Assembly (NCBI GenBank): GCA_963794325.1
Contig: CAWCDG010000004.1
Coordinates: 832,001-896,000, forward strand
Reading direction: 5' to 3'
Source: an uncultured delta proteobacterium
GTDB taxonomy: Bacteria > Desulfobacterota > Binatia > Binatales > Binataceae
DNA length: 64,000 bases
Shown: positions 6,829-36,987 of the stretch, one piece after another
How the letters are laid out: the number at the start of each line of letters is the position of its first letter
Numbering within the stretch: the stretch's first letter is position 1
Translations under genes and position numbers: made by a program
The notes under the pieces: generated by a model
What the model was told of the DNA's origin: nothing
What the model saw: the letters and a program-made list of their open reading frames with translations, nothing else
Databases searched by the model: none

Positions 6829-6855
6829 TTATTTTTTCTCTAGTCGTTCCGAATC

Positions 6856-7656
6856 TCACTTCCCGGACTTCGCAAACACCTTCGCGCTATGAGCGCGCAT
6901 CAGTAACGTTTCTCCATAGCCGGCGACGCGCTGGATTCGCTCTCCAATCGCCTCGATCGTGCGATGACGAATCGCGCCGGCGCGGCTCGCTTCGAGCATC
7001 CACTTGAAATCCTTCAGCGTGGTGCTTGCCATCGGACCCATCCGCGGCATCACACGATTCTCGCTATTGGCAATTCTGAAATCCGACGTCATCACGCGCA
7101 GATAGCCCGCCGTCCACGCGGCCTGCAGAACGGCGTCGTTGTAGTGCCCGCCGGGAAGCGCGAAAGCTGCGATCGGCTCCTGGAGCAGGTCTTCCAACCG
7201 CCGCTTCGATTCGAGCAGCTCGTTAGAGGCGTCGGCCGCGCTTATCTGGGTAAGCCGCGCGTGGGTCAGCCCGTGCGACCCGATCTCGAATCCATCGGCT
7301 CGCAGAGCAAGCACCTGATCGCGAGTGAGATAGCCCGGTTGCCCAAGATAGGACCATACGATGAAAAAGATCGCATGCAGATTTCGGCGCGCAAGCTCCG
7401 GCGCAGCCACAAACCAATCGCTCTCATGACCGTCGTCGAACGTGATCAACAGCGACTTCGGCTCAGCAGCGGGACCATCAAGGTCGTCGAGCGTGATAGT
7501 GCGATAACCGCCCTCGACGATCGCGTCCAGCTGAGCGAAAAAATTACGGTCTCTGACCGCGTGCTCGATGCTCGACGTGTGCGGCAGCGCGGCGCACGCG
7601 GCCGACGAGATCGCATGATACATCAGAATCGGAAGGTCGTTAGTCTTGTCATTCAT
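6856..7656 (-). CDS. Polysaccharide deacetylase (CE4/NodB)
   Basis: PILMYHAI, ITFDDG, IGSHGLTH, FALPGG motifs. Confidence 0.9.
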   Translation of the reverse strand: MNDKTNDLPILMYHAISSAACAALPHTSSIEHAVRDRNFFAQLDAIVEGGYRTITLDDLDGPAAEPKSLLITFDDGHESDWFVAAPELARRNLHAIFFIVWSYLGQPGYLTRDQVLALRADGFEIGSHGLTHARLTQISAADASNELLESKRRLEDLLQEPIAAFALPGGHYNDAVLQAAWTAGYLRVMTSDFRIANSENRVMPRMGPMASTTLKDFKWMLEASRAGAIRHRTIEAIGERIQRVAGYGETLLMRAHSAKVFAKSGK

Positions 7657-7657
7657 A

Positions 7658-9091
7658 TCAGGCCACCCGCCTGAGCAATGGAATCGTCGACGCCGAAATC
7701 GTCGGCTCCGGGACTGCCGCTGGACGCCGACGTAACCTCGCCAGCCGCTGCCTCTCCGCCAGTGCCCAACAGAGCGTCGCGATCATCCCGACCGCGTAGC
7801 GGCAGTCACCCGCCGTGCCTTCGGTAAAATCGAGCATCAATATCGGCACGACCACCAGGAAAAACAGCGGTTTCAAATTCCACGGATCATCCTTGCGTCT
7901 CATCAGCGAGAGCCACGGCCGGATGAAGAAAAACACCCAGAAGAGCAGCGCCGGAATACCGAGGCTGACCGCCTTCGACAGGTAGTCGCTGTGCAGGGAG
8001 CTGCGCGGCCCGTCCTCCCACGGTCCCCACCAAATCGGGAAATCGTGGGCCTTCATGATTTCGCCTTCGACCTCGAAGCCGTAGCCGATCAACGGACGCT
8101 GCTCGATTTTCGTGATCGCAAACTTCCAGATGTCGGTGCGGCCAGTCAGACTCGCAACGTCACCGCGATCGAGATACTCGGGATTCAGTTGGGCGACGAG
8201 AATGTACCCCACCACGCCCAGCGCAACTATGATCGGCACCGCCCGCAGGCGATATTTCCAAACCAGGTACAGCAGTCCACCGACCGCCAGACCGACAAAC
8301 GGCGATCGCGAATCCGCCAGCCCCGCAAGCACGACCGCTGCCAACATCTGCGCCGCCAGCAACACTCTCTTCCATCCAGTGATACGGCTCCAAATCACCA
8401 TCCCCACGCCAATCGTCGCGAGCGCGATCTCACCGATCTGGTTGGGGGAGCCGTAGATGCCGCGCAGGCGCACCAGGCCGGTCATCTCCTCGACGTCCCA
8501 CACCACGTCGTGCGACATGAGCACCGAGCTGACCAGGATCACGGCCCACACGATACCGGTCCCGACTAAGTACCAACTGAGTAGTCTTTCGATATCTTCG
8601 CGATTAGCTACTGCGCGGGCAATTTTAACTATTGCCATGAACATCAGAATTGCGGCCAATATCCTGGCGGTTGAGTAGCTCGGCAATAGCGAATACGAAA
8701 TGCTAACCACGCCGAATCCCAGGTAGATCAGGTAGTCAAGAAACCCGCCCTGTAAAATCTCCGAATTCTGGAACGCAGTCCAAACCGCGGCTCCGCAAAA
8801 TGCGATGAGCAACGGATAGCGAACCATGAAAAGCTGATCGTTGGTCAGCGGTAGAAAGCTTGCTCCGCTCAGCTCTTCGACCAGCAGCAACGCGCATAGC
8901 AAGTGTGCGCCGTTGCCTTGCACGCGCCGCGCCGCCCAAACGATCGCTACTGCGCCTGCGGCGGCGCCGACGCCTAAGATCAGAATTGGAAAATTGAGCA
9001 TCAGCAAAGCCAGCAGGCCGATCGCCGCTACGCCAATCAGCATCGCTGCGGCGGGCGGCCTGTATGCTCTCGATTGCTGTACAAGTTCCAT
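7658..9091 (-). CDS. O-antigen ligase family / Wzy polymerase
   Basis: Multiple TM helices; GIYGSPN, DSRS, LTGRTDIW, PLIGYG, LHSDYL motifs. Confidence 0.85.
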   Translation of the reverse strand: MELVQQSRAYRPPAAAMLIGVAAIGLLALLMLNFPILILGVGAAAGAVAIVWAARRVQGNGAHLLCALLLVEELSGASFLPLTNDQLFMVRYPLLIAFCGAAVWTAFQNSEILQGGFLDYLIYLGFGVVSISYSLLPSYSTARILAAILMFMAIVKIARAVANREDIERLLSWYLVGTGIVWAVILVSSVLMSHDVVWDVEEMTGLVRLRGIYGSPNQIGEIALATIGVGMVIWSRITGWKRVLLAAQMLAAVVLAGLADSRSPFVGLAVGGLLYLVWKYRLRAVPIIVALGVVGYILVAQLNPEYLDRGDVASLTGRTDIWKFAITKIEQRPLIGYGFEVEGEIMKAHDFPIWWGPWEDGPRSSLHSDYLSKAVSLGIPALLFWVFFFIRPWLSLMRRKDDPWNLKPLFFLVVVPILMLDFTEGTAGDCRYAVGMIATLCWALAERQRLARLRRRPAAVPEPTISASTIPLLRRVA

Positions 9092-22934: not shown

Positions 22935-23104
22935 GACCGGAAGTCCTCGGCCCCACAGGGAATCAGCGGATAGAAATGTCTATGGGAATGGCGTCGTCGA
23001 GGTAAAACTCGACGGCGCTGGGCCAAATCGTGGGCCGCCACTCTCCTGGAATCTCCGAGAGCCTGATTCTAAATCACGACCGGCACAATGGTCCGGCTCG
23101 TTCG

Positions 23105-23323
23105 CTATTGTCGGGCTTCGCCCGCAGGCTGCCTCGAATTCTCGAGGAATGTCTCGACGTCATCGCGTCGGAACCGCTTGATCCGCCCGATCGCGTGGCA
23201 AGCCAACTCGCCCCGTCTGACCATGCGGTAGATCGTCATAGGCGTCAGTTGGAGCAAATCAGCCAGCTGGCCGACGGTATAAAACTCAGGCTGGTCGTCG
23301 TTTCTCGGTCGTGTTCCTTGCAT
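23105..23323 (-). CDS. HTH_17 excisionase/BldC-like DNA-binding protein (paralog 2)
   Basis: Core nearly identical to 22072-22281 (PEFYTVGQLADLLQLTPMTIYRMVRRGELACHAIGRIKRFRR). Confidence 0.85.
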   Translation of the reverse strand: MQGTRPRNDDQPEFYTVGQLADLLQLTPMTIYRMVRRGELACHAIGRIKRFRRDDVETFLENSRQPAGEARQ

Positions 23324-23372
23324 CTGCCTTCCTTCTGTTGAACCCCTTTCGAAATTTCAGACGACATGACTA

Positions 23373-23397
23373 TTGACTAAAACAGGGAATTAGTCAA
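23373..23397. promoter_or_regulatory. Inverted repeat TTGACTAA-N9-TTAGTCAA, candidate operator
   Basis: Perfect 8-bp arms, 50 bp upstream of the HTH paralog 2 start. Confidence 0.45.
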
Positions 23398-23430
23398 GCC
23401 TCGAATGATCTTATTATCTACATCTTAGTA

Positions 23431-23445
23431 GGGAAACCGTTTCCC
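23431..23445. promoter_or_regulatory. Palindrome GGGAAAC-C-GTTTCCC, LacI-family-like operator
   Basis: 7-1-7 palindrome containing a GNAANCGNTTNC match. Confidence 0.35.
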
Positions 23446-23755
23446 ATTATTCGTGTACTGTCTTAATGACTTAATTTAACCACGCCTCTGCCGGTTCTCT
23501 ACAGAACAAAAATGAGACCATGCGCGTCAGGCTAGCTAACTTGCCCCGCTCCGGCGGACGCCCATCGGGTGGAGAAGCCTGAGATGCATCCGGCTTCATA
23601 CCTGGTGCCTTTTGCGCTGATTGAGCGAAGCTGCCAGGAAAATGGTTTTGGCGGCCGCGCACGGTGTTCACCTGGTCAATCGAGCATTGCGGTCGCTATT
23701 CGGAATTCTGCGAGTGATGCCGCGACTCAAGCAATCGCTGGAATTTCACGTAGCC

Positions 23756-24688
23756 TCAACGAGCCAGAAAGTCTTCCATCGCCTTTACGGTTTGAGCCGG
23801 GCTCTCCTCCTGCGGCACGTGGCCGAGCTGACTGAAGACGACCAGCTGGCTGTTGACGATGTCGTGGTGGAAACGCTCCGCATCGGATGCGGGCACGACG
23901 TGATCAAGCCCGCCCCACAGGATCAGGGTTGGGATTGCGATCGTCCTGATGCGGTCCGAGTCGGTATCGGGCTCTTGCTCGAACTGGAGAATAAACGCCC
24001 GCCGGTTTCCGGCGCGTAGGAACAACTCGTAATAGCGATCAACCAGATCCGAAGTCAGCTTGCGCGGATCGCCGTACGCCTCGATGAGGTTCTTCTTGAT
24101 GAAGCTTCGTGGCGTGACGTGCTCGATCAACCAACGGAAGACCGGAATCTTCGCCATCCGAAAGACGATAGGAGGCGATTCTCCCTCGCCGGGGTAGCCG
24201 GTCGAGTCGATCAAGACCAGACGGTAGACGAGGTCGGGCCTGGCGGCTGCGGTTTCCCAGGCGATGCTGCCACCCAGTGAATTGCCAACAAGGATGGCGT
24301 GTTTGATGCTGAGCTGATTGAGGAGGTCTTCCATGAAGCGCGTGTAGTGTTCGATCCGGTAATCGTCGTCGCGGAACTGCCCGCTAAGACCGGCGCCCGG
24401 CAAATCCAGACTGACGACACGATGCTGGCTCTTCAGCGCGGCAACCCATCCCTCCCAAGTGTGAAGGCTGGATGCCGTGCCATGGATGAGGACGATGGGA
24501 TGCGGGTCGTTGCCCGGTCCTTGATCGCGCAGATGTACCGATACTCCGTCAATCGTCACGAATTTGGAGGGTGCCGGCGCCCAGCGAGCCCGGAGGGAAT
24601 CAGCCGATCGATCTGGCGTCCATTCCACGCCAACCAGTCCTGCGACGAAGGCGAAAGCAACCGCGAGTATAATTATTGCTCTCTTCAT
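23756..24688 (-). CDS. Alpha/beta fold hydrolase, N-terminally anchored
   Basis: LIHG, DLPGAG, GNSLGG nucleophile elbow, WGGLD, GHVPQEE. Confidence 0.92.
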   Translation of the reverse strand: MKRAIIILAVAFAFVAGLVGVEWTPDRSADSLRARWAPAPSKFVTIDGVSVHLRDQGPGNDPHPIVLIHGTASSLHTWEGWVAALKSQHRVVSLDLPGAGLSGQFRDDDYRIEHYTRFMEDLLNQLSIKHAILVGNSLGGSIAWETAAARPDLVYRLVLIDSTGYPGEGESPPIVFRMAKIPVFRWLIEHVTPRSFIKKNLIEAYGDPRKLTSDLVDRYYELFLRAGNRRAFILQFEQEPDTDSDRIRTIAIPTLILWGGLDHVVPASDAERFHHDIVNSQLVVFSQLGHVPQEESPAQTVKAMEDFLAR

Positions 24689-24838
24689 TCATGTCCTCTT
24701 TATCGGTGCGCCATTGCGGACCTGTCTTTTTCACACCGCGTCGGAGCGCAATTGCCGCGGCCCGGGCGCTTGCGTTCGGCTCATAGAAGAATATAAGCTA
24801 TTGCTCACAATTTAAACTCGCATTCTGGACGGATGCAT

Positions 24839-25474
24839 ATGGCGCGAAAACCGCAAACGAACCCAAGAAAATCAGCCTCTCAGGAGCGATCACGTTCAAC
24901 TGTCGATGCGCTTTTGGAAGCGACTGCTCGTATTTTGGTGAAAGAAGGCTACGACCGAGCGAGCACTAACAGGATTGCCGAAGTGGCGGGGGTCAGTATC
25001 GGTTCGTTGTACCAGTACTTCCCGAGCAAGGAGGCGCTGGTAGCGGCTGTTATTGACCGCCATACACAAGAAGTTTCGGCGGTTACCCGCAACGCCCTGG
25101 TCAAGATGGCAGCGCGTCCAATCGAGGTCGCGGCGCGCGAATTTGTTTCGGTTGCAATCGACGCGCACCGCGTCAATCCCAAGCTTCATGGCGTCCTTGC
25201 CGAACAGATCCCACGTGTCGGGCGGCTCGAAAATCTCGAGGCTAATGTCCGGGAGGGTTATGCACTGGTCCGGGGCTACCTCGAGGCACATCGCGATGAG
25301 ATCGACGTCGCCGACCTCGATCTCGCGGCCTTCGTCTTAGTGACGATAGTGGAGGCGCTGACACACGCCGCAGTCCTGCGTCGCCCGGACATCCTCGCCG
25401 ATGGGAAAGCACGATACTTTGTGGACGACGTAACGCGCCTGGTGGTCCGGTACCTGCGCACGTCGCGCCCTTGA
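24839..25474 (+). CDS. TetR/AcrR family regulator
   Basis: ASTNRIAEVAGVSIGSLYQYFPSKEAL HTH; divergent from the hydrolase. Confidence 0.95.
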   Translation: MARKPQTNPRKSASQERSRSTVDALLEATARILVKEGYDRASTNRIAEVAGVSIGSLYQYFPSKEALVAAVIDRHTQEVSAVTRNALVKMAARPIEVAAREFVSVAIDAHRVNPKLHGVLAEQIPRVGRLENLEANVREGYALVRGYLEAHRDEIDVADLDLAAFVLVTIVEALTHAAVLRRPDILADGKARYFVDDVTRLVVRYLRTSRP

Positions 25475-25543
25475 CAGCATTCGAATTCGGCGGTCCAATA
25501 GAAATTGGGACGGTAGAATGTTTCGCGTTGCGCGGGGAAATGC

Positions 25544-25897
25544 ATGCGCACGGAAAAAAATAATATTCGGCGCTCCCTTTGCCTGACGCTAGCCGCACTA
25601 TTCTGTGCGGTGTCGGTTTCGCAATCTACCAGGCCATTTGCCGCGCTTGCCCTATCGAGTACGCATAGCATCGTGATTCACTATCAGAAGCTTGCGCGAT
25701 ACGCCGTCGAGGAAGTCGGCAGCGAGCCAATCGAACCCAGCATCAGCAGCTTCATGACGGTCTCACTCGTGGTAGCTGAGCCCGAACCAAAATTTGCGGC
25801 CACCAGCAAGATCAATGAGGCCGACGTCACCGAGTGGCCCTACAAATGCCTCTTTCACCGGCGAACGCTCCCGCCGTCACCTGACGACGGCATCTAG
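25544..25897 (+). CDS. Small signal-bearing ORF, candidate regulatory leader peptide for the DUF1329 gene
   Basis: ATG after GGGGA; basic N-terminus plus hydrophobic helix; C-terminus PYKCLFHRRTLPPSPDDGI resembles that of 34094-34444. Confidence 0.55.
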   Translation: MRTEKNNIRRSLCLTLAALFCAVSVSQSTRPFAALALSSTHSIVIHYQKLARYAVEEVGSEPIEPSISSFMTVSLVVAEPEPKFAATSKINEADVTEWPYKCLFHRRTLPPSPDDGI

Positions 25898-26069
25898 TCT
25901 CCACAATCGAATTCTCAGGATTCGCGCCTAACCAGCGGTCCAGCATCGTCACCGACAGAGTTGTGGCGATGGCTCTTGGGTGCGCGAGTCCCTGTTATTC
26001 GGCAGCGCCACTCACCGCAGGCAATTTAAGCGGTGCTCCGAACCTATAGCTACCTAGAGGAGGTCTTAC

Positions 26070-27404
26070 ATGTTTCCGATGAAGCGAACTAAGTGTCAGC
26101 TATATGCAATCGTCCCGGTGGTCTTTGTTCTGACTTTTCTAACCGCTTCCCTCGCACTGGCTCAGGTTAAGCCCGGCGACGTCATCACGCCGGAAAATGC
26201 TTACAAGGTCAAAAACCTCGTCTCCCCAGGGGTTTTCTACAAAGTCCAGCAGGGGATGCAGATGAAAATCGCGCCCTCCGATCGCGTCAATTGGCCGCCG
26301 CCTTACAAGGACGCAACCGAGAAATATTCTGCGCAGGTCCGGCTCTCGCCAGATGGGCGCACGGTTGAGAACTATGTGGCCGGCCAGCCGTTTCCATTCC
26401 TCGATCCCAATGATCCGAGGGTTGCAACCAAGATCATATGGAACAACGTATTTCGGCCGCTTCAGACCGATGACTACGATCTGCGTTACTTCGCCTGTGA
26501 AAATGTGCGGAGCGGGCGCAATGTCCCATACCGGGTACTCGATGAGATCGATGTAGGTCACTACGCCGGCTACAACGAGATTGGACGGACCGAGGTCGAG
26601 CCAATGCCGATCGATCCAGACTTCAAGAAGACCGGGCGCTACTGGCTGTTCGGGCTCTACCCGATTATGGCGCCGGAAGGTATGCGCGGCGCCGGCTTTC
26701 TGCGCTACCGCTATGCCGATCCGAAAAAGTCCGATGACATATGGTCGTGGAATACCGGCTCGCGGAGGCTGCGCCGTCTGGACGAAGGCATCATGAGCGA
26801 CGCAGTTACCGGGTCGGGGACGCCGAGCGAGGGTGCCGGGAATATCGTGGTGTTCGATCCGGATCACTATTCCGGCTTCAACGCCAAAGTGGAGGAGTAC
26901 AACTATCGCTTCCTGGGTTCGAAGACCATGCTCGGCGTGGTCCACGCGGTCCATTCCCCCGAAATAACCTGCCCGACAGACGGCGGAGGCAGCGCGTGTC
27001 CAGAGAATTGGGAGACGCGCCAAATGTACATCGTGGAAGCTACCCCCAGGCGTCATTCAAACAACTCGCAGGCACTGCAATCGCGGACCGTGCTCTACAT
27101 AGACAGCGAAGTATGGTTCCCGCTTTACGAGGACGCATACGATCAACAGGGTCAGCTGTGGCAGGACCACATCTACTGGCTGACTTATCGTGATCGGCCG
27201 GTGCCTGATGCGCGAGTAGCGATCTATCCATTCAAGCGCTCGTTCGTCGTAGGAGCGGCAGCCACCGATACGCAAACCGGAATGTCGGCGATGTGCTACC
27301 TGCCAAGTCGCAACACTCCGGAAAAGGAATGCTGGTATATCAATATGGGCGCGGTGGACCGTAACTTCTTCGACCCTGACGCGATGGTAAGAGCGGCTCC
27401 GTAA
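26070..27404 (+). CDS. DUF1329 domain-containing exported protein
   Basis: Signal peptide ALA-Q; PGDVITPEN, YVAGQPFP.LDPNDP, D.WSW...RRLRR, YDQQGQLW; strong GAGGAGG RBS. Confidence 0.85.
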   Translation: MFPMKRTKCQLYAIVPVVFVLTFLTASLALAQVKPGDVITPENAYKVKNLVSPGVFYKVQQGMQMKIAPSDRVNWPPPYKDATEKYSAQVRLSPDGRTVENYVAGQPFPFLDPNDPRVATKIIWNNVFRPLQTDDYDLRYFACENVRSGRNVPYRVLDEIDVGHYAGYNEIGRTEVEPMPIDPDFKKTGRYWLFGLYPIMAPEGMRGAGFLRYRYADPKKSDDIWSWNTGSRRLRRLDEGIMSDAVTGSGTPSEGAGNIVVFDPDHYSGFNAKVEEYNYRFLGSKTMLGVVHAVHSPEITCPTDGGGSACPENWETRQMYIVEATPRRHSNNSQALQSRTVLYIDSEVWFPLYEDAYDQQGQLWQDHIYWLTYRDRPVPDARVAIYPFKRSFVVGAAATDTQTGMSAMCYLPSRNTPEKECWYINMGAVDRNFFDPDAMVRAAP

Positions 27405-27428
27405 CCAGTCCTTCCGCGAGCCTGCAAC

Positions 27429-27461
27429 GGGGCTGGCGTGCCACGAGGGCAAGCCAGCCCC
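27429..27461. terminator. GC-rich hairpin between convergent DUF1329 and USP genes
   Basis: GGGGCTGGC...GCCAGCCCC 9-bp outer stem with inner TGCC/GGCA; no strong U tract. Confidence 0.5.
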
Positions 27462-27468
27462 GACGACC

Positions 27469-27919
27469 TCAAACAGACGCCGAGGTTGGATCCGTGTGGT
27501 GTAATACGAGCACCGGACAATGAGCTTCGCGAATGACATGCTCTGTGACACTGCCCAAAACGAAATGCTCGAGTCCGTGGCGCCCGTGGGTAACCATTAC
27601 GATCAAGTCTACTCCTAGCTCGTGAGCCGCCCGCACAATATCAGTATCAGGCACACCTGTTCTGACATCGATAACATTGCCCTTGGTCCTTGAGGGTGTT
27701 CTGGACAATTAATTCGAGCTTGGCTCTGGCTTCTTTCACCCAGCGCGGATCGGCATCAAACGGAAGCGGAACGTCCATATCGTGGGTAGGCACTCTGGCA
27801 ATGTGCAATACGTAGAGCGTTGCGTTGCTTTCCTTTGCCAACGTGCTCGACAAAAGCAATGCGGCCGTTGAATTTCCATCGAACTCGAACGCACACAATA
27901 TCTTGTTGTATTTGAGCAT
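27469..27919 (-). pseudogene. Universal stress protein split by a frameshift near 27675-27690
   Basis: N-half YNKILCAFEF...LYVLHI in one frame; C-half DLIVMVTHGRHGLEHFVLGSVTEHVIREAHCPVLV in another. Confidence 0.75.
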
Positions 27920-27986
27920 TGCTTTCCCTGAGATATGGAGCTTCATTGAATTCAGCTCCGAATCGCCATCTTCAGGCTGTTGCAGC

Positions 27987-29402
27987 TTAGAATTCCGCTA
28001 ATGATCGACCGGTCGCTCTATCAACCGCCGCCTTGGTGACCGAGAAGCCATATAGGGCGTCGGCGTACGCTGCATCGTCTGCGGTATAGCTTCGTTGCGC
28101 ATCTTCCAATTCGATAATACTTGTTAGGCCCGCTTCATAGCGCTTCTCCGCCAATTCCAGTTCCGCGCGCGAAGCTGCAAGCGTCTTTTCCGCGCGCGAG
28201 ATGCGTTCAATAGAAGCTTGCCAATTGAGAAACGAAGTATGAACCTGCAGAATTACTTCTTGCCGCAGGTCTTCGATCGCGCGAAGGATCGCGTGTTGGC
28301 GAAACCTGGTCTCCGCAATTTGATCAGTGGTAAGAAAGCTGTTGAAGATTGGCCAGGTGATAACTATCCCGGCGTTGAAATTATTTGCGGCAGGAGTAGC
28401 AGTCCCCAGTGCCGAGTATCCCGCAACTGCGTTGACGCTGGGATAGTAGTCACTCTTGTACTGAACGATCCTGGCTCCCATAGCTTTCGCCTGATCGTCG
28501 AGCGCAATCAAATCAGGCCTGCTTCGGAAAGCCGTCTCGAGCAAAGAATTTACTGATTCGGTGATCGGATGGTAGGTTAAAATATCTGCTAGTTCGTACG
28601 CCGGCGCTGAGTCACTGAGACCCAATGCGTTGTCGAGCGCGACCTTGGCGTCTTCGTCGCCGTTACGCGCATCGACGAGATGCAACTGAGCCCGCTGCAC
28701 CTCGGCTTCCGTGACATAGGTATCGAGTTGCGGCCTGAGACCGGCGTTAGCCTTAACCTGAGCCTCATGGTTGTGATATTGACGCTGCTCGAGTGCTTTC
28801 TCGTACACCGCGATCATTCGCTTCGCCTCTAGCACCGTGAAGTACCGTTGGGACACTTCGAATATCAGATCAAGCTCGGTAAGCTGTTGATCGGCAGCCG
28901 CTGCAGCGGCCTCAAACTGGCGTTCCGAAACGAAACCATGCCGGCGGCCGAAGTCGACAAGAAACTGGGACAGCATCACACCTCCCATGTAGTTATTGCT
29001 GGTGTCCCAACTCTGCGACGTATCATTTGCAGGCAAGTTGTGATTCGTTCCACTTATTCGCGGAAGAGCACCATCCGGGTTGTAGTAGCTCGTGTTGCCA
29101 ATGCCATTGTCGGTGCTGCGCAGATATTGTGTGGCGCCAAATAGCTGTGGTCCTAAGTATGATCGCGCCTGCCCGATCTGCTGCTTCGCGGCACTGGTGT
29201 TGTCCGCGGCTTCCTGGAGTCTCGGATGATATTTCAGAGCGATCTGGATCGCCTCCTTGAGCGTCAACTGGGATCCTGGCGATATTGGCGCCGCTACTTG
29301 CGGTTCACCACTTGGTACGGACGTAGGATTAGCCGCGCCAGCGATTCGATGCGTCCAGAGAAGCGCGCATGAGAGAAGAACCAGGATTCGCGCAGATTCC
29401 AT
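27987..29402 (-). CDS. TolC family outer membrane efflux protein
   Basis: LTLKEAIQIALKYHP, RPDL, YYPSV, AEKRYEAGLTSIIELEDAQ. Confidence 0.92.
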   Translation of the reverse strand: MESARILVLLSCALLWTHRIAGAANPTSVPSGEPQVAAPISPGSQLTLKEAIQIALKYHPRLQEAADNTSAAKQQIGQARSYLGPQLFGATQYLRSTDNGIGNTSYYNPDGALPRISGTNHNLPANDTSQSWDTSNNYMGGVMLSQFLVDFGRRHGFVSERQFEAAAAAADQQLTELDLIFEVSQRYFTVLEAKRMIAVYEKALEQRQYHNHEAQVKANAGLRPQLDTYVTEAEVQRAQLHLVDARNGDEDAKVALDNALGLSDSAPAYELADILTYHPITESVNSLLETAFRSRPDLIALDDQAKAMGARIVQYKSDYYPSVNAVAGYSALGTATPAANNFNAGIVITWPIFNSFLTTDQIAETRFRQHAILRAIEDLRQEVILQVHTSFLNWQASIERISRAEKTLAASRAELELAEKRYEAGLTSIIELEDAQRSYTADDAAYADALYGFSVTKAAVDRATGRSLAEF

Positions 29403-29714
29403 TGTTAACCTACCCACCTGTTTCGCAATCGATTTGATGCTTGGTATCGTCAGTCAGTCAGAACTTTGCGCCAATGATGTTGCCTTGACGTTTTCATTCT
29501 GTGCCCGACAATCAACCTGCTGTCCCGGAGTAAAAGAACAGTTGTAGGTCGTGACTACCAGCGAGTTTGGCGCCAGGCCCGACGTTACATCTAAATAAGC
29601 GCATTGTTGATCCCGAGCGCCCCGTCAAATTGCGGAGTGGCTACAGTCAGTAGGCAACCCGCAAATACAATTGCAGCTCTGATATTCGATACTCGCATAG
29701 TTTTGCTCCGGCAC

Positions 29715-30857
29715 TCACGGGGTTTCCGCAACCATGTTCGATCGTTCATCAGGCTGTGGCGTCTGCTGCACGATATTGACTACTTCGTCGGGGACGATTG
29801 AAGGATCCAGGGCGGTCACTACTTCTTCATTGCCGCTTAGACCGCTGACAATCTCGGCGCTCTTGCCGTTGTTGATTCCGACCGTTACCTCCTGTCTCCG
29901 CAGCTTCCCGCCCTCCGCGACCATTACGTACTTCCCATCGGGCGAATCGCCAATCGCAGACTCGGGTAGCTCGATCGCGTCGCGATGCCGCTCGAGTTCG
30001 AGCGTCACATTCGCGTACATCCCGGGGTAAAGCTCATGCCGGGGGTTCTTCAAATCGATCTCCGACAGCATAGTGCGCGTTCCGAGATCGAGAGAATTTG
30101 AATAGCGGGCGACCGATCCCTCGAAAGAGCGTCCCGGCAGGTCCTGGAGCGTCAGCTTCGCGGGCATCCCGCGTTTGATCGATGCGATTTCGCCCTGTGG
30201 CACATAGACATACGTGCGCATCGTGTCGATCATCGCGAGACTCAGGACAGGTGAAGTGCCGCCGCTCGGATGCGCCGAACCCTGATCCGGAGAGGCAGTC
30301 GTTTGCTCTCCGCCGGATTTGATCAAAGCGCCCGGATCGACAAAGCGGCCCGTGATTACTCCGGCGAAGGGCGCGACGATCCTGGTGTACGAGACCATCG
30401 CACCGAGCTCGTCCATTTGTGCTTTCGCTTCAAGGTACTTGCCCTGAGCGATATCGACATCTTGGCGCGCGACCAGCCTCGGATCGCTTTTCCAGACTTG
30501 CTCGAGGCGCTGATAGGTCAGGTGCTGAACTTCCAGATCGGCGCGCGCGCGTGCGACCCGCTCTTGAAGCTCGGGCACCTCGATTACTGCAAGGACCTGT
30601 CCTTCTTTTACCCAGTCGCCCTTATCAACTGAGATACTCTTCAAATAGCCAGTTACCTTTGCGTACAGAGTTGACTGGTATAGTCCGACCAAATCTCCAG
30701 GCAGCGTGATCGATCGGATCATGTCGCCGCGCTGCGGCCGAACTACCACAACCGTGCGTCGCGAATCGCTCGGCGCATCATTGTGTGCGCGCGAACATCC
30801 ACTCACCGCCACTAACATGCAAACGGCCGCGATTGTGCGGCAGACGAATTTGTTCAC
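29715..30857 (-). CDS. RND efflux periplasmic adaptor (MFP)
   Basis: Lipobox VSGC; AKVTGYL..VDKGD.V..GQVL, IVAPFAGVIT.R.VDPG, LYPGMY; GTG overlaps the permease TGA. Confidence 0.92.
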   Translation of the reverse strand: MNKFVCRTIAAVCMLVAVSGCSRAHNDAPSDSRRTVVVVRPQRGDMIRSITLPGDLVGLYQSTLYAKVTGYLKSISVDKGDWVKEGQVLAVIEVPELQERVARARADLEVQHLTYQRLEQVWKSDPRLVARQDVDIAQGKYLEAKAQMDELGAMVSYTRIVAPFAGVITGRFVDPGALIKSGGEQTTASPDQGSAHPSGGTSPVLSLAMIDTMRTYVYVPQGEIASIKRGMPAKLTLQDLPGRSFEGSVARYSNSLDLGTRTMLSEIDLKNPRHELYPGMYANVTLELERHRDAIELPESAIGDSPDGKYVMVAEGGKLRRQEVTVGINNGKSAEIVSGLSGNEEVVTALDPSIVPDEVVNIVQQTPQPDERSNMVAETP

Positions 30858-33800
30858 TTCGATACCTGCTGATGACGGCTGTAAAACATTTCGTAGAGCG
30901 CGGGGACCAGGAACAGCGTCAACACTGTGGAGACCGCGAGTCCTCCTGCGGCAGCGCGCGCTAGCGGGGCGGAAGCTTCGGACCCGGCCCCAAGCTTCAG
31001 CGCCATCGGCATCAGGCCCACCACGGTCGCCAGCGTGGTCATCAGAATCGGGCGCATCCGGATTTTCGCCGACTCGATGACTGCCTGGCGCAGTTCCTGG
31101 CCGCCGCGGAAGCGGCGGTTGGCGAAATCCACCAGCAGGATCGCGTTGGACACGACGATCCCAACCATCGCGATGATTCCCATGAACGATTCGATGTTGA
31201 GCGTCGTGCCGGTGAGGTAGAGCGTCCACACGACGCCGATCAGACCCATCGGCACCGCGAACATTATGATGAAGGGGTCGAGGAACGATCGGAACTGCGC
31301 CACCATCACGAGGTAGAGCAGCACCACCGCCATCGCGAGGCCGTAGCCGAAGCTCGAAAACGATCGTTGCATCGATTCGACCGACCCGCGATATGCGATT
31401 TGTGTTCCCGCCGGCAATTCGAGATCGCCCAGTGCCTTTCGCACCGCCGTCAACGTACCGCCCATGTCGTCAGTGCGCGGCGCGACCAGCACATCGACGA
31501 CGCGTTGGATGTTGAAGTGGTCCGCCTCGGCCGGATGATTCTCGCGGGTAATCGTCGCGACGTTGCGCAGCAGCAGCGCGTCTGCACGCGAATGGTCGCC
31601 GTCGCTGCTTCGCACTGGGATGTCGCGTAGCGTATCGAGTGAATTGATCTTGTCTTCGTCGTATTGCGCGGTCAGGAAGTAGTCATTGCCCGATTTCGGA
31701 TCGATCCAGATTGACGGCGCGATCATCTGATTCGATGTGAGCGCGGTGATCACGTTGGTCACGACGTCACGTTGATTGAGACCCAGCCGCGCGGCTTTCA
31801 CCCGGTCGACGTTGATCTTGAGGGTAGGATAGTTCGATTCCTCGGGAATGAACGTGCCGGCGACTTCCGGCAAGCCTTTCACGCGCGCGTCGACTTTGCG
31901 CGACAGATCGAAAAGCTCGGCGTAGTGGCGGCCGCTCACCTGTATATCAATCGGCGCCGCCAGTCCGAAATTAAGGACCGAGTCGATGATGCTGCCCGAT
32001 GAAAAGAACGTGCGAATTTCCGGCATGCGCGCGGGCAAGGTCGCTTTGAGTTTCGCGACGTAGTCCCAGGTCGAGACGCGATGATCGGGTTTGAGTGCGA
32101 CCATCACGAAGCCCGAGTCACTTGCAGCGTTCGACGAATAGATCGACGAAAATCCCGGCGCCAATCCCAGGTTAGAAACTATGGTCGAGAGGTCAGCAGC
32201 CGGTATCACTTCTCGAATCGTGTCTTCCAGCCGTTCGGCGAGTTGTTCGGTGAGTTCGATGCGCGTTCCGAGCGGCGCGCGGAACTGGATGACGAATTGG
32301 CCTGCATCCGTCCTGGGAAACAGCTCGGTCCCGAGCAGGGGAAATGCGGCCATACTAACCACGAAGAGAATCGTCGCAGCCGCGACCACAACGCCTTTGT
32401 GATTTAGCACTCGATCGAGCAGATGCTCGTAACGCTCCGCGAAGCGGTCGTAGCTGCGGATGAACGCGGCGAGAAAACCGCGGCCGCTGCCTTCTTCCGC
32501 TTGCCGCGCCGACTCCGCCGTCAGAAAATGCGCGCAGAAGACCGGGATCACAGTCATAGCGACGATGTACGACGCCAGCATCGAGAGGACCACTGCCAGC
32601 GACAGCGCGCTGAACAGCGACTTCGCTACGCCGAACAGGAACATCACGGGCGAGAACACGATGATAGTCGTGATCGTCGAGGCGAGGACCGCCAGCGCGA
32701 CTTCGTTGGCGCCGTCGCGCGCCGCGTCGGGGGGCGCCTTGCCCTCGGCCAGATGGCGGTTGATGTTTTCGAGCACGACCGTCGAGTCGTCCACCAGGCG
32801 GCCGATTGCGAGTGCGAAGCCGCCCAGCGTCATCACGTTGATAGTTGAACCCATCATGTGCAGGCCGAACGCGCCGGCAAGAATCGAAAGCGGTATCGAC
32901 AGAAAGATTGCGACCGTCGAGCGGAAGCTGCCGAGGAAAATCAGGATCATCAGCGACGCGAGCACGGCGCCCGAGGCCGCTTCATGCTCGAGGCTTTCGA
33001 TCGCCGCGCGCACATAAGAATCCTGCCCGAAGATCGATTCGATCTTCATGCCGGCGGGCAGGCCTGCGATTTTCTTGATCGCATTGCCGACGCCGTCAAC
33101 GACCGCGATCGTGTTGGCGTTGCCCTGTTTCATCACGGGGATGTAGACCGAGCGCTGGCCGTTGATGCGCACAATGTTCTGCTGAATCTGCGCCGAGTCC
33201 TCGACGTGGCCGACGTCGCCCAGCAGCACGGGTTCCTGACCGGGTCCGACCTTAACCGGCACCTGGTTAATCGCGGCCGGGTCGTCGAGCATGCTGTTGC
33301 TGTAAACGAAGTAGTCGGTCGGACCGATCTTCGCGTCGCCGGCCGGAATGATCAGGTTACTGTCGTCGAGTGAATGGACGACGTCCATCAATGTGAGGCC
33401 GCGCGCCTGCAGAGCATCGCGATTGACGTAGGCCATGATCTGCCGATACTTGCCGCCAAACGGCGGAGGCACCGAAGTGCCGGACACGGTCGCGATCCAG
33501 TTGCGGATGTTGTACTGCGCCTGGTCGCGGAGCTGCGCCTCGGTGAACCCAGTGCCTGCGACAGTCACGAGCGTTACCGGCAGCGACGATGCGCCAGATT
33601 TCAGGATGAGTGGCGGCAGCGTGCCGGGCGGCAGATGGCGCAAATCGGCCATCGCGAGGTTGCCGAGCGTGGCAGTCGCGGCGCTCAGATCAACGCCCGG
33701 CTGGAAGAAGACTTTGATGATGCTGACGCCGGGCAGCGAGCGCGACTCCATGTGATCGATGTCGCTGCCGAGCGTGAAGAAGCGCTCGAAGCGGGTCGTG

Positions 33801-33982
33801 ATGTCGGCCTCGATATCCAGCGGCGGCATCCCAGGATAAAAGGTTGCGACGACCGCGACCGGGATATCGAGATTGGGAAAGACGTCGACGGGCATACTGA
33901 GAAATGCCGCGACTCCCAAGATTACCGTGAGCAGCGCGCCCACGATCACGGTGTGCGGATTGCGAAGTGAGAAACCAGGCAC
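30854..33982 (-). CDS. RND efflux permease (AcrB/CusA superfamily)
   Basis: MPVDVFP, TINVMTLGG.ALAIG.LVDD..VV.ENI, RMRPILMT, PLARA..GG; GTG start after GGGAG. Confidence 0.95.
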   Translation of the reverse strand: MPGFSLRNPHTVIVGALLTVILGVAAFLSMPVDVFPNLDIPVAVVATFYPGMPPLDIEADITTRFERFFTLGSDIDHMESRSLPGVSIIKVFFQPGVDLSAATATLGNLAMADLRHLPPGTLPPLILKSGASSLPVTLVTVAGTGFTEAQLRDQAQYNIRNWIATVSGTSVPPPFGGKYRQIMAYVNRDALQARGLTLMDVVHSLDDSNLIIPAGDAKIGPTDYFVYSNSMLDDPAAINQVPVKVGPGQEPVLLGDVGHVEDSAQIQQNIVRINGQRSVYIPVMKQGNANTIAVVDGVGNAIKKIAGLPAGMKIESIFGQDSYVRAAIESLEHEAASGAVLASLMILIFLGSFRSTVAIFLSIPLSILAGAFGLHMMGSTINVMTLGGFALAIGRLVDDSTVVLENINRHLAEGKAPPDAARDGANEVALAVLASTITTIIVFSPVMFLFGVAKSLFSALSLAVVLSMLASYIVAMTVIPVFCAHFLTAESARQAEEGSGRGFLAAFIRSYDRFAERYEHLLDRVLNHKGVVVAAATILFVVSMAAFPLLGTELFPRTDAGQFVIQFRAPLGTRIELTEQLAERLEDTIREVIPAADLSTIVSNLGLAPGFSSIYSSNAASDSGFVMVALKPDHRVSTWDYVAKLKATLPARMPEIRTFFSSGSIIDSVLNFGLAAPIDIQVSGRHYAELFDLSRKVDARVKGLPEVAGTFIPEESNYPTLKINVDRVKAARLGLNQRDVVTNVITALTSNQMIAPSIWIDPKSGNDYFLTAQYDEDKINSLDTLRDIPVRSSDGDHSRADALLLRNVATITRENHPAEADHFNIQRVVDVLVAPRTDDMGGTLTAVRKALGDLELPAGTQIAYRGSVESMQRSFSSFGYGLAMAVVLLYLVMVAQFRSFLDPFIIMFAVPMGLIGVVWTLYLTGTTLNIESFMGIIAMVGIVVSNAILLVDFANRRFRGGQELRQAVIESAKIRMRPILMTTLATVVGLMPMALKLGAGSEASAPLARAAAGGLAVSTVLTLFLVPALYEMFYSRHQQVSK

Positions 33983-34093
33983 GATACAAACTCCCAATCC
34001 CCGGCTTATCAGAGCCGATGGATTTCAAACTTGACCACAACCGCCCGCTGAAAACTTGCTCGCGTGCTAGCGAATCACGAGTCTGAAGTTTGC

Positions 34094-34444
34094 TTAGAGC
34101 GGGTCCTGGCTTTTCGAGCGCGAGGGGAACAGTTTGTAGCGTCTCGCTACTTGTCTTACGAAAGGTCTCCTGAATCCGAAATTCAGTGACGGTTTGACGG
34201 CCTGATCGTCCGCTACAAGCTTCAGATCCTGCACCAGTGGAATGCCATTCACCTCATAGCCGGCCTTGAGATCGGGCGCGCGCGACGAATTATCGGTGAA
34301 CCGCTGCGCCCCGCTGAGAGTTGCGCTCTCGGTCGATCCGCAGGACAGGCGTACGTGCGGGTGCTGTAGGCGAGGCGTGAACGCTACGGCGCTTATCGCG
34401 ACAAGAATCACGGCAACCAGCTGCAAATGTCGGCGATTAAGCAT
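34094..34444 (-). CDS. Small signal-bearing ORF, candidate regulatory leader peptide for the RND operon
   Basis: Basic N-terminus plus hydrophobic helix; C-terminus PFVRQVARRYKLFPSRSKSQDPL; own upstream promoter. Confidence 0.6.
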   Translation of the reverse strand: MLNRRHLQLVAVILVAISAVAFTPRLQHPHVRLSCGSTESATLSGAQRFTDNSSRAPDLKAGYEVNGIPLVQDLKLVADDQAVKPSLNFGFRRPFVRQVARRYKLFPSRSKSQDPL

Positions 34445-34456
34445 TGCGCAGCGAAT

Positions 34457-34484
34457 ATTTTATCGTACCGAATTTTGAATGCAA
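34457..34484 (-). promoter_or_regulatory. Sigma70-type promoter for the leader-RND operon
   Basis: TTGCAT-N16-TAAAAT, ending 12 nt before the ATG at 34444. Confidence 0.55.
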
Positions 34485-34565
34485 GCGGAGCATATTCTCC
34501 GGCCTTCGCGAAGACTCCAGACTTGGCCAACGGCGGTTCATCTCCATCTCTCTCAATGGCGGACT

Positions 34566-34661
34566 TGGATGCTCGAGGCTGCGATCGTGCTCGAGCTTGC
34601 GCGGGGCAAGTTCGTCGAGGCTGCGGTCATCGCGGGTCTGCTGGTGTTCAACGCCGGTCTC
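34566..34661 (+). pseudogene. Remnant of a P-type (IIIA, H+-efflux-like) ATPase TM1-TM2 region
   Basis: Translates WMLEAAIVLELARGKFVEAAVIAGLLVFNAGL, matching the WMLE...LL.FNA.L segment of plasma-membrane H+-ATPases; no remainder of the gene present. Confidence 0.6.
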
Positions 34662-34688
34662 AGTGACGCTGCCCACGACGGCCCACAA

Positions 34689-35948
34689 CTAGGGCTGCTT
34701 AACTTCCAGCGTTGGATCGCGAACCAGGATCCCTTCCGCATACAGGCTGCGAATCTTATCCGCCGGCATCTTCAATAGCTCGCGCAACACTCGCTCGTTG
34801 TCCTCACCAAGCCGCGCCGATCTCACTTCAGTCTTATCCGGCCACGCCGAGAACTTTACCGGCACTGCCGGAATCGCGACCGTGCCCAGCAAAGGATCCT
34901 CAACCCATCGAACCGTCTTGCGCTCATTGAGATGCGGATGCTTGATAGCTTCATTGACCGTCAGCACGGGCGCGCACGGCACTCGCTCGGCGTCCAACAC
35001 TGCGATCGCGTCATCGCGGCTGGGAAATTTTGAGAGCCAGCTCTCGATAACGTCGCGAAGCTGCTCCTTATTATCCCGGCGTCCACGCGCATCTTTGAAA
35101 CGCGGGTCGCTCGCCAATTCCGGCATCTCTAGCGCGCGCACAAACTGCGGCCATTGATGCGGCGTCGACGTGATCTGAATGTATTGATCATCCCGAAAAT
35201 GAAAAATACCGGTCGTGCCGCCGTCAGGATGGAGCGATCCACTACGCGTAGGACGAAACTTATCCCCGCGCAGCGACACGATCGGCACAGTCTTCTCATG
35301 CATGTGGAAGTAGGTATCCAGTAGCGACGCGTCCAGGTATTGGCCTTCTCCCGTACGCTCGCGATGAAGCAGCGCGAATCCTATCGCCATCGCCGCAGCG
35401 ACGCCCGTCGAAACGTCACCTATCGCCATGGTAGTCAGAGCCGGCGGACCATCAACCTGTCCTATGCCGTCGGTAACCCCGGCATAGGCTTGACCTATAA
35501 AATCGTAGCCCGCTTTGACTGAAAGTGGTCCCGTCTGGCCGGCCATCGAAATCGAACACATAATGATTTTCGGATTGACAGCTTTGACATCCTTATAGGC
35601 GAACCCCAGCCGGTCGATCACCCGCGGCGCGAAGTTCTCGACTACGACATCGACCTGCGGAAGCATCGACATCACGATCTCGCGCGCCCCAGGTTTCTTC
35701 AGGTCAATCGCAAAGCTCAGCTTCGAGTGGTTGTGCTGCAGGTAGTAGGTGCTATGACTTGACCCCTTGTATTCAGGCGCGAGTGACTTGAGCCCGTCAG
35801 CGCGCACCCGATCGCCAAACGGCGCGAGCTCGAGCTTGATAACTTCAGCACCCATCTCACCTAGCAGTCGCGTGCACGTCGGCCCCGCTACGAACTGCGT
35901 GAAATCAAGTACCCGGTAGCCTTCCAGCATTTGCGGCTTGTTCGCCAT
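34689..35948 (-). CDS. CaiB/BaiF family III CoA-transferase
   Basis: LEGYRVLDFTQFVAGP, GAEVIKLE, DVVVENF, GYDFIGQA. Confidence 0.95.
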   Translation of the reverse strand: MANKPQMLEGYRVLDFTQFVAGPTCTRLLGEMGAEVIKLELAPFGDRVRADGLKSLAPEYKGSSHSTYYLQHNHSKLSFAIDLKKPGAREIVMSMLPQVDVVVENFAPRVIDRLGFAYKDVKAVNPKIIMCSISMAGQTGPLSVKAGYDFIGQAYAGVTDGIGQVDGPPALTTMAIGDVSTGVAAAMAIGFALLHRERTGEGQYLDASLLDTYFHMHEKTVPIVSLRGDKFRPTRSGSLHPDGGTTGIFHFRDDQYIQITSTPHQWPQFVRALEMPELASDPRFKDARGRRDNKEQLRDVIESWLSKFPSRDDAIAVLDAERVPCAPVLTVNEAIKHPHLNERKTVRWVEDPLLGTVAIPAVPVKFSAWPDKTEVRSARLGEDNERVLRELLKMPADKIRSLYAEGILVRDPTLEVKQP

Positions 35949-36003
35949 GGCTGCGTCCTCTCGTTCAGTCTCTATACCACTTCAACGCCGGGAGGGGTAA
36001 CCG

Positions 36004-36987
36004 TCAGAATCGTAGCAGTTCGCGTGCGTTCGCTCCGAGGATTTTGTTTTCGTCGTCTGACTCGAGGCCAAGCGCTTTCACTTCTTCCACCGGATGCGCC
36101 AGGCCGGCGGGCAAAGGATAGTCGGTCCCTATGACGAATCGCTCCGCGCCATAAGTCTTAATGAGATGACCTAGCATTCCGCGGCTATGCGCGATGATAT
36201 CGAAATAGAACTGATTCATGTAACTGGATGGCGGCCGCGGAATCGCCTTGCGGCATTCGGGTACGATCCGATAGCCCATGTCGAGTCGTCCTACCAAGGC
36301 CGGCAACGCACCGCCGGCATGATACAAAACAATTCGCAGATTCGGATGGCGCTCCATCACGCCTCCATAAATCAATAGCGCGGCGGCCAGGCCGGTATCA
36401 TACAGATTGCCGACCAGGTTGCCGAGAAAGTATCTGGAAAGCGCGCCCGCCGGCGCAGCCTCGAAAGGATGGATACAAACGACCATGCGCAATTCCTCAG
36501 CCGTAGCCCAGAACACCTCGAAATCCGGCTCGTCGAGCTGACGTTCGACGACCTTTGGCGGAATCTCAACTCCACGAAGCCCCAACTTGGCGGCGCGTTC
36601 CAATTCTTTCGCAGCCGCAACTGGATCTTGCATCGGGACGCTCGCCAGTGGCACGAAGTGAGCCGGATCGCCCGCTCCCAGAGCGGCCATCACGTCATTG
36701 TTGACTTGCGCGATCGCGAGTCCGAGAGCGGCATCGACGTCCGGGTACATCAGGAACGGAACGCACGATACCGCTTGCGCATTGACGCCCTCGCGCTCCA
36801 TATCTGCGATCCGCGCTTGCACGTGCGAGATCGGGCCATCGATCGGCCGCATCGCCTTTTCCTGGATCAAAAGAAAACGCCGGCCGTCACGCTCCACGAT
36901 CCTTGTCGCGAAATGCTTACCTTCCCGCGCGAGAAAATCGATTATCTCGGGCGCGATGAAGTGGTTGTGCATGTCGATGACATCCAT
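36004..36987 (-). CDS. Amidohydrolase_2 family (ACMSD-like decarboxylase/hydratase)
   Basis: IDMHNH, CIHP, HAGG, GTDYP motifs. Confidence 0.88.
   Translation of the reverse strand: MDVIDMHNHFIAPEIIDFLAREGKHFATRIVERDGRRFLLIQEKAMRPIDGPISHVQARIADMEREGVNAQAVSCVPFLMYPDVDAALGLAIAQVNNDVMAALGAGDPAHFVPLASVPMQDPVAAAKELERAAKLGLRGVEIPPKVVERQLDEPDFEVFWATAEELRMVVCIHPFEAAPAGALSRYFLGNLVGNLYDTGLAAALLIYGGVMERHPNLRIVLYHAGGALPALVGRLDMGYRIVPECRKAIPRPPSSYMNQFYFDIIAHSRGMLGHLIKTYGAERFVIGTDYPLPAGLAHPVEEVKALGLESDDENKILGANARELLRF

Follow-up and report, generated by a model that had tools for sequence, protein, structure and literature searches.

Small conserved reading frames ahead of an RND efflux operon and a DUF1329 gene in Candidatus Binatus as candidate regulatory leader peptides

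Introduction

Do small, unannotated open reading frames (ORFs) directly ahead of genes for envelope proteins control the expression of these genes, or do their products act as proteins in their own right? The question is raised by a stretch of 64,000 nucleotides (nt), hereafter the window, from an uncultured soil bacterium of Candidatus Binatus, family Binataceae (assembly GCA_963794325.1, contig CAWCDG010000004.1, positions 832,001 to 896,000). Here, ORF-A precedes a DUF1329 gene on the plus strand, and ORF-B precedes genes for an RND permease, a membrane-fusion protein (MFP) and a TolC-family outer-membrane efflux protein (OEP) on the minus strand. An earlier prediction, made from the letters of the DNA alone, had proposed that both ORFs are signal-bearing leaders of one new arrest-peptide family. 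The two ORFs are indeed present at the predicted positions and lengths (Table 1), and Pfam confirms the DUF1329 and RND/MFP/TolC genes behind them, at gaps of 172 nt (A) and 111 nt (B).

Relatives were examined in 47 Candidatus Binatus genomes, a count that includes two unpublished genomes (G019 and G024) without a match, and in a comparison set of 200 further genomes of the phylum. Profile searches of the window's own genome, which has a G+C content of approximately 57%, covered 49,365 six-frame ORFs. The strongest new facts are a C-terminal tail common to ORF-B and a second family, C, at one RND locus, and a strict pairing of ORF-A with one DUF1329 paralogue. We consider A, B and C to be credible, unproven candidates for regulatory leader peptides.

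Results and discussion

One tail with two different bodies ahead of the same RND operon

Almost all copies of family B (24 of 26) lie upstream of an orthologue of the window's RND gene, with a gap of 104–117 nt by coordinates; one of the remaining two is located at a contig end and the other in a 63%-complete genome without an RND match. Approached from the RND side, with the first 500 residues of the permease as query, 43 loci were found. Of these, 24 have B upstream, 15 without B were inspected, and the other four comprise a partial locus, a broken locus and two that belong to unpublished genomes. Upstream of 13 of the 15 inspected orthologues, 105–120 nt before the RND start, we found a new family, C, in genomes that lack B (loci L070–L081 and L084). 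Its members have 123–128 amino acids (aa), mostly 124, and a conserved GTG start. ORF-B appears to be the first cistron of an RND-MFP-TolC operon. The other RND and DUF1329 paralogues found in the window's genome have no similar ORF upstream.

The first approximately 80 residues of C cannot be aligned with B. Family C proteins end in ..FRILQHFKLGPSRSGAPDPLL, and one member ends in ..IRPLRRLKLGPSRPDNPDPLI, bridging to the ..IRPLIRRFKLLPSRAESQDPL of B; the common tail reads KL[LG]PSR-x4-DPL at the stop codon, 104–120 nt upstream of orthologous RND genes. Profile-profile comparison of C and B with hhalign aligned the last 39 columns only (E = 1.5e-5, probability 79%). A profile of the C tail, built solely from genomes without B, ranked ORF-B first among the 49,365 ORFs (E = 0.011; next best 1.1), and the full-length C profile retrieved no match from the same genome with default filters. 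The RND genes behind B (G007, 92% identity) and behind C (G018, 91%) are equally close to the RND gene of the window. Since the bodies of B and C differ while the tail and the spacing are shared and the RND genes are equally close to that of the window, the leader body was replaced at this one locus while tail, spacing and pump remained unchanged.

A -10-like hexamer is found 10–14 nt before the start codons of B (TAAAAT in 7 of 14 loci, one-base variants in most others), and family C has TTGTGA-N17-TAT[CG]CT approximately 10 nt before its GTG start. From starts this close behind a -10-like hexamer, we infer the site of transcription initiation, and with it that B and C head their transcripts with little or no untranslated leader.

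As a side observation, an in-frame TGA or a frameshift interrupts the RND orthologue at G256:C1:68331–69831.

ORF-A is paired with one DUF1329 paralogue

DUF1329 genes are strongly expanded in the genus: each genome has 5–18 matches, and that of the window has 15. The group that contains the window's gene is unusually conserved and clearly set apart, comprising 12 copies in 11 of the 47 genomes at 87–96% identity, the next matches reaching at most 71%. A copy of family A lies directly upstream of all 12 orthologues (at least 87% identity), and the paralogues in the same genomes with identities of 71% or less are not those preceded by A. The 12 linked A copies belong to two subfamilies that are approximately 30% identical to each other, and ORF-A diverges much faster than its neighbour (31–83% identity vs. 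87–96% for DUF1329).

Several details of the A loci are recorded here in their own right. The distance between A and DUF1329 is approximately 830 nt at L017 (G011) and L019 (G012), compared with 140–170 nt elsewhere, and the insert in G011 holds a 241-aa ORF without a Pfam family. A second DUF1329 orthologue in G006 (L024, G006:C1:8730–10004) has one in-frame TGA, which may indicate a pseudogene or a sequencing error, and the A copy upstream of it is intact. TetR genes recur beside A, being located upstream of ORF-A in the window (24833–25474) and downstream of the A-iv copies at L088, L090 and L091. The A-iv copies (L019, L028, L086–L091) have a conserved hairpin, GAAAAGG..CCUUUUC, approximately 35 nt past the stop codon and with compensating changes, which may be terminator-like or regulatory. 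At L028 (G002:C20, approximately 6626–7681), a B and an A-iv copy are divergent and approximately 345 nt apart, heading an RND operon and a DksA/TraR-nucleotidyl-transferase pair, respectively.

ORF-A and ORF-B are genes under purifying selection

ORF-A and ORF-B are real genes under purifying selection. Family A has 27 copies in 17 of the 47 Candidatus Binatus genomes and family B has 26 copies in 25 of them. All are free of internal stops, and full-length frames stay open in relatives down to 31% (A) and 53% (B) identity. The ratio of nonsynonymous to synonymous differences (pN/pS) in sliding windows is below one throughout (A 0.43–0.85, B 0.26–0.74), with minima at the helix end, the middle block and the tail. 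The databases hold hundreds of clusters of the same length (A, 84 at 50% identity; B, 74 at 90%; C, 275 at 90%), and where a source gives a name it is always "hypothetical protein"; one of the 275 family C clusters is named from Candidatus Binatus soli. Long chance ORFs are common at this G+C content, the adjacent spacer is itself strongly conserved, and ORF-B has no consistent Shine-Dalgarno site, as might be expected of accidental frames in G+C-rich intergenic DNA whose conservation derives from regulatory DNA or RNA. This explanation is hardly credible, given the open frames at such low identities, the pN/pS values, the same-length database clusters and invariant residues that are written with different synonymous codons.

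Both families seem to be narrowly distributed. Among the 200 other genomes of the phylum, nothing credible was found for A or B (two weak matches to the A profile both contain internal stops), and the profile search of the window's genome revealed no second copy of either. Neither Pfam (E ≤ 0.01) nor NCBIfam assigned ORF-A or ORF-B to a family, NCBIfam had none for C, and the Pfam model of DUF2946 was not matched at E ≤ 1 by any of ten A, B and C members. The ESM Atlas gave no usable match for A and scores of up to 0.86 for B (an unnamed cluster and eukaryotic malectin clusters), which we treated as noise. A literature search found no published description of families A, B or C.

Stop codon usage is a side observation. 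A ends mostly in TAG and B mostly in TAA, compared with 30% and 20% genome-wide, with too few lineages for a test. TGA, which ends 50% of the long ORFs genome-wide, ends 1 of 17 A and 0 of 14 B copies in a first set, and A-iv copies in a later set often have it.

Protein anatomy, and two families instead of one

The products of ORF-A and ORF-B are predicted to consist of an N-terminal membrane helix or localisation signal followed by a disordered chain. AlphaFold2 models place a helix at residues 3–36 of A and 4–22 of B with per-residue confidence (pLDDT) of 82–97 and the remainder as coil; the mean pLDDT is 69.8 for A and 57.9 for B. From helix end to stop codon, there are approximately 80–95 residues in both.

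Family A has a basic N-terminus and a helix that ends in ..AQxxRPL, the middle block LTRHxxEEV[GS], a variable linker of approximately 45 residues, and the terminal block W..[FVI]HR[RK]xxPPSxDD followed by 1–7 residues. In family B, the helix ends in ..AFTPRLQxPH, the middle block is LSGAxRFxDxS..PDL, and the tail P[IL][IV]RRxKL[LF]PSRxxSxDPL reaches the stop codon. The tails are FHRRTLPPSPDDGI in A, VARRYKLFPSRSKSQDPL in B and FKLGPSRSGAPDPLL in C. In the A tail, F104, R106, R107 and D114 show little or no variation among homologues, and in the B tail R101, R102, K104, L105, P107, D114, P115 and L116 are invariant. A DNA alignment of 14 B sequences shows that the Pro, Leu, Arg, Lys, Gln and Asp residues of the tail are kept through synonymous codon changes.

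The N-terminal features described in the original prediction, basic residues with RRxL followed by a hydrophobic helix, are present in both ORFs (the helix according to AlphaFold2). Conservation of the C-terminal motif among homologues, which that prediction had proposed as a check, holds inside each family and at the amino-acid level. It further expected conservation to be restricted to the two termini; this was not the case, as the middle blocks (LTRHxxEEVG in A, LSGAxRFxDxS..PDL in B) are also constrained. Two ideas about the N-terminal half were dropped. A Tat signal was rejected, with RRxL differing from the Tat consensus and being unconserved in subfamily A-iii and in some B members, and a metal sensor in B (HPH...C) was discarded because Cys35 is not retained in divergent members.

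The proposal that both ORFs belong to one family with one C-terminal motif failed in BLASTP, profile-profile and C-terminal-profile tests alike. BLASTP gave no alignment between ORF-A and ORF-B at E ≤ 100, and hhalign probabilities were 0.7% with narrow profiles and 4% with broad ones (alignments of 62 and 46 sequences; nine C-terminal columns, E = 0.01). Neither full profile retrieved the other ORF among the 49,365 ORFs. In the same set, ORF-B was absent from the 20,496 ORFs reported for the A C-terminal profile, and ORF-A ranked 9,105th with the B C-terminal profile. Family C is hardly closer to A (E = 0.0027, probability 11%), its tail profile ranking ORF-A 9,579th. The motif shared by the two tails, formulated earlier as a regular expression, does select just these two ORFs by their C-termini (2 of 49,365), but it had been derived from them. 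On the basis of these comparisons, A and B are independent, unrelated families, whose resemblance consists of architecture and a loose basic-Pro-Ser-acidic pattern.

A conserved spacer between ORF-B and the RND gene

Across 26 B loci, mean pairwise identity is 79% in the spacer, 75% in ORF-B (third positions 65%) and 76% in the first 900 nt of the RND gene (third positions 59%). The spacer is functional, because it is more conserved than both flanking coding sequences, third positions included. Family C has a covarying hairpin, CUGGAG-UUCG-CUCCAG, before its Shine-Dalgarno site. In all A copies, the stop codon is directly followed by a C- and U-rich tract.

Layout of the locus

The features of the locus are listed in Table 1. 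Read from the sequence, the RND start was re-set to the GTG at 33982, with GGGAG 8 nt upstream, and the GTG start of the adaptor (30857) overlaps the RND stop codon as GTGA (30857–30854). According to Pfam and NCBIfam, the minus-strand neighbours also include a CoA-transferase gene. The operon order here is RND permease, adaptor and outer-membrane protein, which differs from the other RND loci inspected in the same genome, where an adaptor-sized ORF of approximately 400 aa precedes the permease. An Rfam search of positions 23000–36500 (E ≤ 5) yielded a chance microRNA match at 27428–27462 and nothing else, and scans for consensus promoters and terminators gave no signal above shuffles.

Table 1. 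Features of the two candidate leader loci, with positions counted from the first letter of the window
Feature	Coordinates	Strand	Remarks
TetR-family regulator gene	24833..25474	+	Pfam TetR_N 3.3e-16, TetR_C_15 7.3e-18; 70 nt ahead of ORF-A
ORF-A, 117 aa, family A	25544..25897	+	Helix (predicted), LTRHxxEEVG-type middle block, tail W..FHRRxxPPSxDDxx-stop
ORF-A/DUF1329 spacer, 172 nt	25898..26069	+	Pyrimidine tract TCTCC directly after stop
DUF1329 (LolA-like) gene	26070..27404	+	Pfam 9.4e-43; one paralogue among 15 matches in own genome
Outer-membrane efflux protein (TolC family)	27987..29417	-	Last in operon; Pfam OEP 1.2e-46; NCBIfam TolC family
Membrane-fusion (periplasmic adaptor) protein	29715..30857	-	Pfam HlyD_D23; NCBIfam RND_mfp 8.2e-59
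RND permease, multidrug-type	30854..33982	-	Pfam ACR_tran 1.6e-211; NCBIfam RND_permease_2
ORF-B/RND spacer, 111 nt	33983..34093	-	Conserved above neutral level; contains hairpins
ORF-B, 116 aa, family B	34094..34444	-	Helix (predicted) ..AFTPRLQxPH, middle block LSGAxRFxDxS..PDL, tail RRxKL[LF]PSRxxSQDPL-stop
-10-like hexamer TAAAAT	34457..34462	-	12 nt before ORF-B start codon; no consistent Shine-Dalgarno site between

Candidate arrest peptides and their known counterparts

Our working interpretation, to which we assign somewhat less than an even chance, is that ORF-B is a leader cistron of the RND-MFP-TolC operon and ORF-A likewise of one DUF1329 paralogue, their tails pausing the ribosome in cis. 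Each ORF would encode a membrane- or Sec-targeted, largely disordered polypeptide whose conserved tail acts on its own ribosome, causing a pause or arrest within the last approximately 15 codons or at the stop codon. The dwell time of this ribosome would set the expression of the next gene by one of two routes: the paused ribosome might unfold structured RNA within the conserved spacer; alternatively, by analogy with TnaC, a ribosome at the stop codon might mask a Rho entry site directly behind it. The pause would be modulated when the N-terminal helix engages the export machinery, and possibly by a ligand of the middle block, so that pump expression would respond to the status of the envelope or of export. 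We infer the pausing, the signal sensed and the downstream effect. That B and C differ in body but share their tail would fit this interpretation, since such a swap is expected where the tail acts as effector and the body as an exchangeable input. The TnaC-like route would fit spacers of 100–250 nt and would work without sequestering the Shine-Dalgarno site.

Most known leaders of the arrest-peptide type regulate the export machinery itself, and Shine-Dalgarno sequestration is central to the SecM/MifM/CutF model. The monitoring substrates SecM, VemP, MifM and ApdA/ApdP, together with the candidates of Fujiwara et al. 2024, resemble A and B in their narrow, patchy distribution and fast sequence divergence (PMC10987492). 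They differ, as far as described there, in that they precede secA, secDF or yidC, whereas A and B precede a DUF1329 gene and an RND operon; A and B also add a third, middle conserved block and lack a supported Shine-Dalgarno stem-loop. The in-silico screen of Fujiwara et al. 2024 used criteria that include a secretion signal or transmembrane segment at the N-terminus, conservation of the C-terminus and a spacing of more than 30 residues (PMC10987492). Three of the four criteria given there describe A and B, namely the localisation signal, the conservation of the C-terminus and the distance from the signal to the tail end, which exceeds 30 residues. On the remaining criterion the two ORFs depart from that description: they are small and unannotated, but the genes downstream are DUF1329 and RND-MFP-OEP.

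The best formal match to A and B, in terms of the descriptions at hand, is CutF (DUF2946) of Rhodobacter capsulatus, an exported leader in which a signal peptide is combined with a sensing motif in the body and a stalling motif at the C-terminus that contains proline (PMC9973294, 10.1101/2025.02.05.636593). CutF controls translation of the next gene, which encodes an envelope enzyme and not export machinery, and the ribosome-binding site is shielded (PMC9973294, 10.1101/2025.02.05.636593). A and B share the three-block layout ahead of a non-Sec envelope gene. They differ in having no DUF2946 match and no conserved Cys pair (divergent B members lack Cys35); a poly-proline run is absent from B and C, A has PP in some members only, and a shielding stem-loop is unsupported.

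TnaC, a cytoplasmic peptide of 24 residues without a targeting signal, holds a ribosome at its stop codon that hides the adjoining Rho entry site. It has in common with A and B a leader ORF, a spacer of at least 100 nt and conserved C-terminal residues up to the stop codon, and the C/U-rich tract behind the stop codon of all A copies is located where TnaC has its Rho entry site. A and B differ in their length of 116–117 aa and their predicted targeting helix. AcrZ, likewise a small membrane protein with a single helix and a functional link to an RND pump, has approximately 49 residues, lacks a long disordered tail and is not known to be the first cistron of a pump operon, whereas B is predicted to have such a tail, appears to be the first cistron and shows no family match.

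Weighing cis-acting leaders against other roles

Several observations weigh against ribosome pausing in cis, of which the first group concerns the Shine-Dalgarno region. The original prediction held that the bases after each stop codon are complementary to the downstream Shine-Dalgarno site, and such complementarity does exist. RNAalifold, run on 14 B sequences, pairs the post-stop GCAAACUUY with RGAGUUUGC, which holds the RND Shine-Dalgarno site, over 9 base pairs (bp) with hairpins in between, and a divergent B locus keeps eight of nine of these long-range pairs. In A, the pairing spans 5–7 bp and is present in the minimum-energy structure but absent from the centroid; for subfamily A-iii, the prediction is an alternative pairing over 6 bp between GGUUAU and the stop codon plus the codon before it. 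Yet the complementarity does not exceed chance expectation. Of random 18-mers drawn from the genome, 39% (B) and 51% (A) bind the same initiation region equally well, and covariation in the B alignment is confined to two pairs in a local hairpin, with almost none in the long-range helix. The fold of the single sequence does not surpass shuffles in stability (z = -0.68). For 18 of 19 loci, the native upstream part does not close off the initiation region beyond what shuffled versions do, the fraction of dinucleotide shuffles as closed or more being 0.05–0.63 for eight B, 0.20–0.93 for seven C and 0.43–0.73 for four A loci. Family C has no clear anti-Shine-Dalgarno sequence behind its stop codon. 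The Shine-Dalgarno pairing is thus at chance level for a genome of 57% G+C.

A second group concerns gene neighbourhoods, where leaders ahead of envelope genes had been expected. The position of B before RND orthologues and of A before all orthologues of the window's DUF1329 gene agrees with this, but the other 15 of the 27 A copies precede different genes or none that is clear. They are followed by a gene for a DksA/TraR-type zinc-finger protein (n = 4), a TetR regulator and then a 411-aa ORF (n = 3; Pfam identifies the ORF as a membrane-fusion protein at one locus of the three), another A copy (n = 2), a nucleotidyl-transferase (n = 1) or a pyridine-nucleotide-disulphide oxidoreductase (n = 1); in the remainder, the gene behind A is not clear or the contig ends (n = 4). 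Family A is thus tied to this DUF1329 gene without being a general leader of envelope genes. At L082 and L083, moreover, RND orthologues have neither B nor C and are preceded by unrelated DNA.

The proteins themselves provide the third group. Established arrest motifs include RAPP, RAGP, RAPG, RGPP, HAPP, QAPP and LPPP (PMC10987492). The tails of A, B and C contain neither a RAPP-like tetrapeptide nor another of the motifs listed in that paper, whose candidate lists could hold related tails. In addition, the middle blocks are constrained as strongly as the tails according to pN/pS, and thus the products may act as proteins.

This last point leads to the alternative that A and B are ordinary small membrane or periplasmic proteins acting in trans, in which a single-pass anchor or a signal peptide would carry a disordered chain whose short linear motifs, the middle block and the C-terminal tail, bind the pump, the adaptor, DUF1329 or a regulator, and with their first place in the gene order reflecting co-expression. 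Three separate conserved blocks, each under purifying selection, a confidently predicted N-terminal helix and tight synteny would all suit such proteins, as would the lack of support for Shine-Dalgarno sequestration. The occurrence of A beside TetR and DksA-type regulator genes would suit a membrane-anchored modulator of regulators. It would be odd, however, for a co-evolving subunit that the first approximately 80 residues of B and C are wholly different while their RND partners are approximately 90% identical, unless the tail alone makes contact. Similarly, ORF-A can be 31% identical where DUF1329 is approximately 90% identical, no fold is predicted and no known small-subunit family is matched. 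All in all, we consider a role in trans unlikely, though one to be taken seriously.

A further alternative is that A, B and C are precursors of exported peptides, the tail being released in the periplasm and the B/C product expelled by the adjacent RND-MFP-TolC pump. A signal, a disordered linker and a conserved C-terminus of approximately 15 residues do resemble exported pro-peptides, and B and C are always encoded with a tripartite exporter. Nevertheless, no protease or modification gene is conserved nearby, the tail is near-invariant across the genus while specificity-determining signals are usually variable, most A copies are unlinked to an exporter, and no known precursor family is matched. 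We therefore regard this alternative as improbable.

Implications

Returning to leaders that pause the ribosome in cis, a wider proposal is that Candidatus Binatus possesses fast-diversifying, secretion-coupled arrest peptides with novel tails (KL[LG]PSR-x4-DPL-stop in B/C, HR[RK]xxPPSxDD in A), of which B/C would gate RND efflux by envelope, export or ligand status. In this breadth, the proposal is doubtful. If it is true, the B/C leader would be the first case of arrest-peptide control of an RND pump and would add a post-transcriptional layer to efflux regulation, and the tails would supply new stalling sequences for work on the ribosome. The exchange of the B/C body with retention of a stalling tail would, in that case, show how leaders evolve new inputs. 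B and C together offer a natural experiment, with a common locus and tail, an unrelated body and a near-identical pump, that points to the tail as the important part. If A and B act in trans instead, the RND and DUF1329 systems of a widespread lineage of uncultured soil bacteria would have disordered accessory factors of a new kind.

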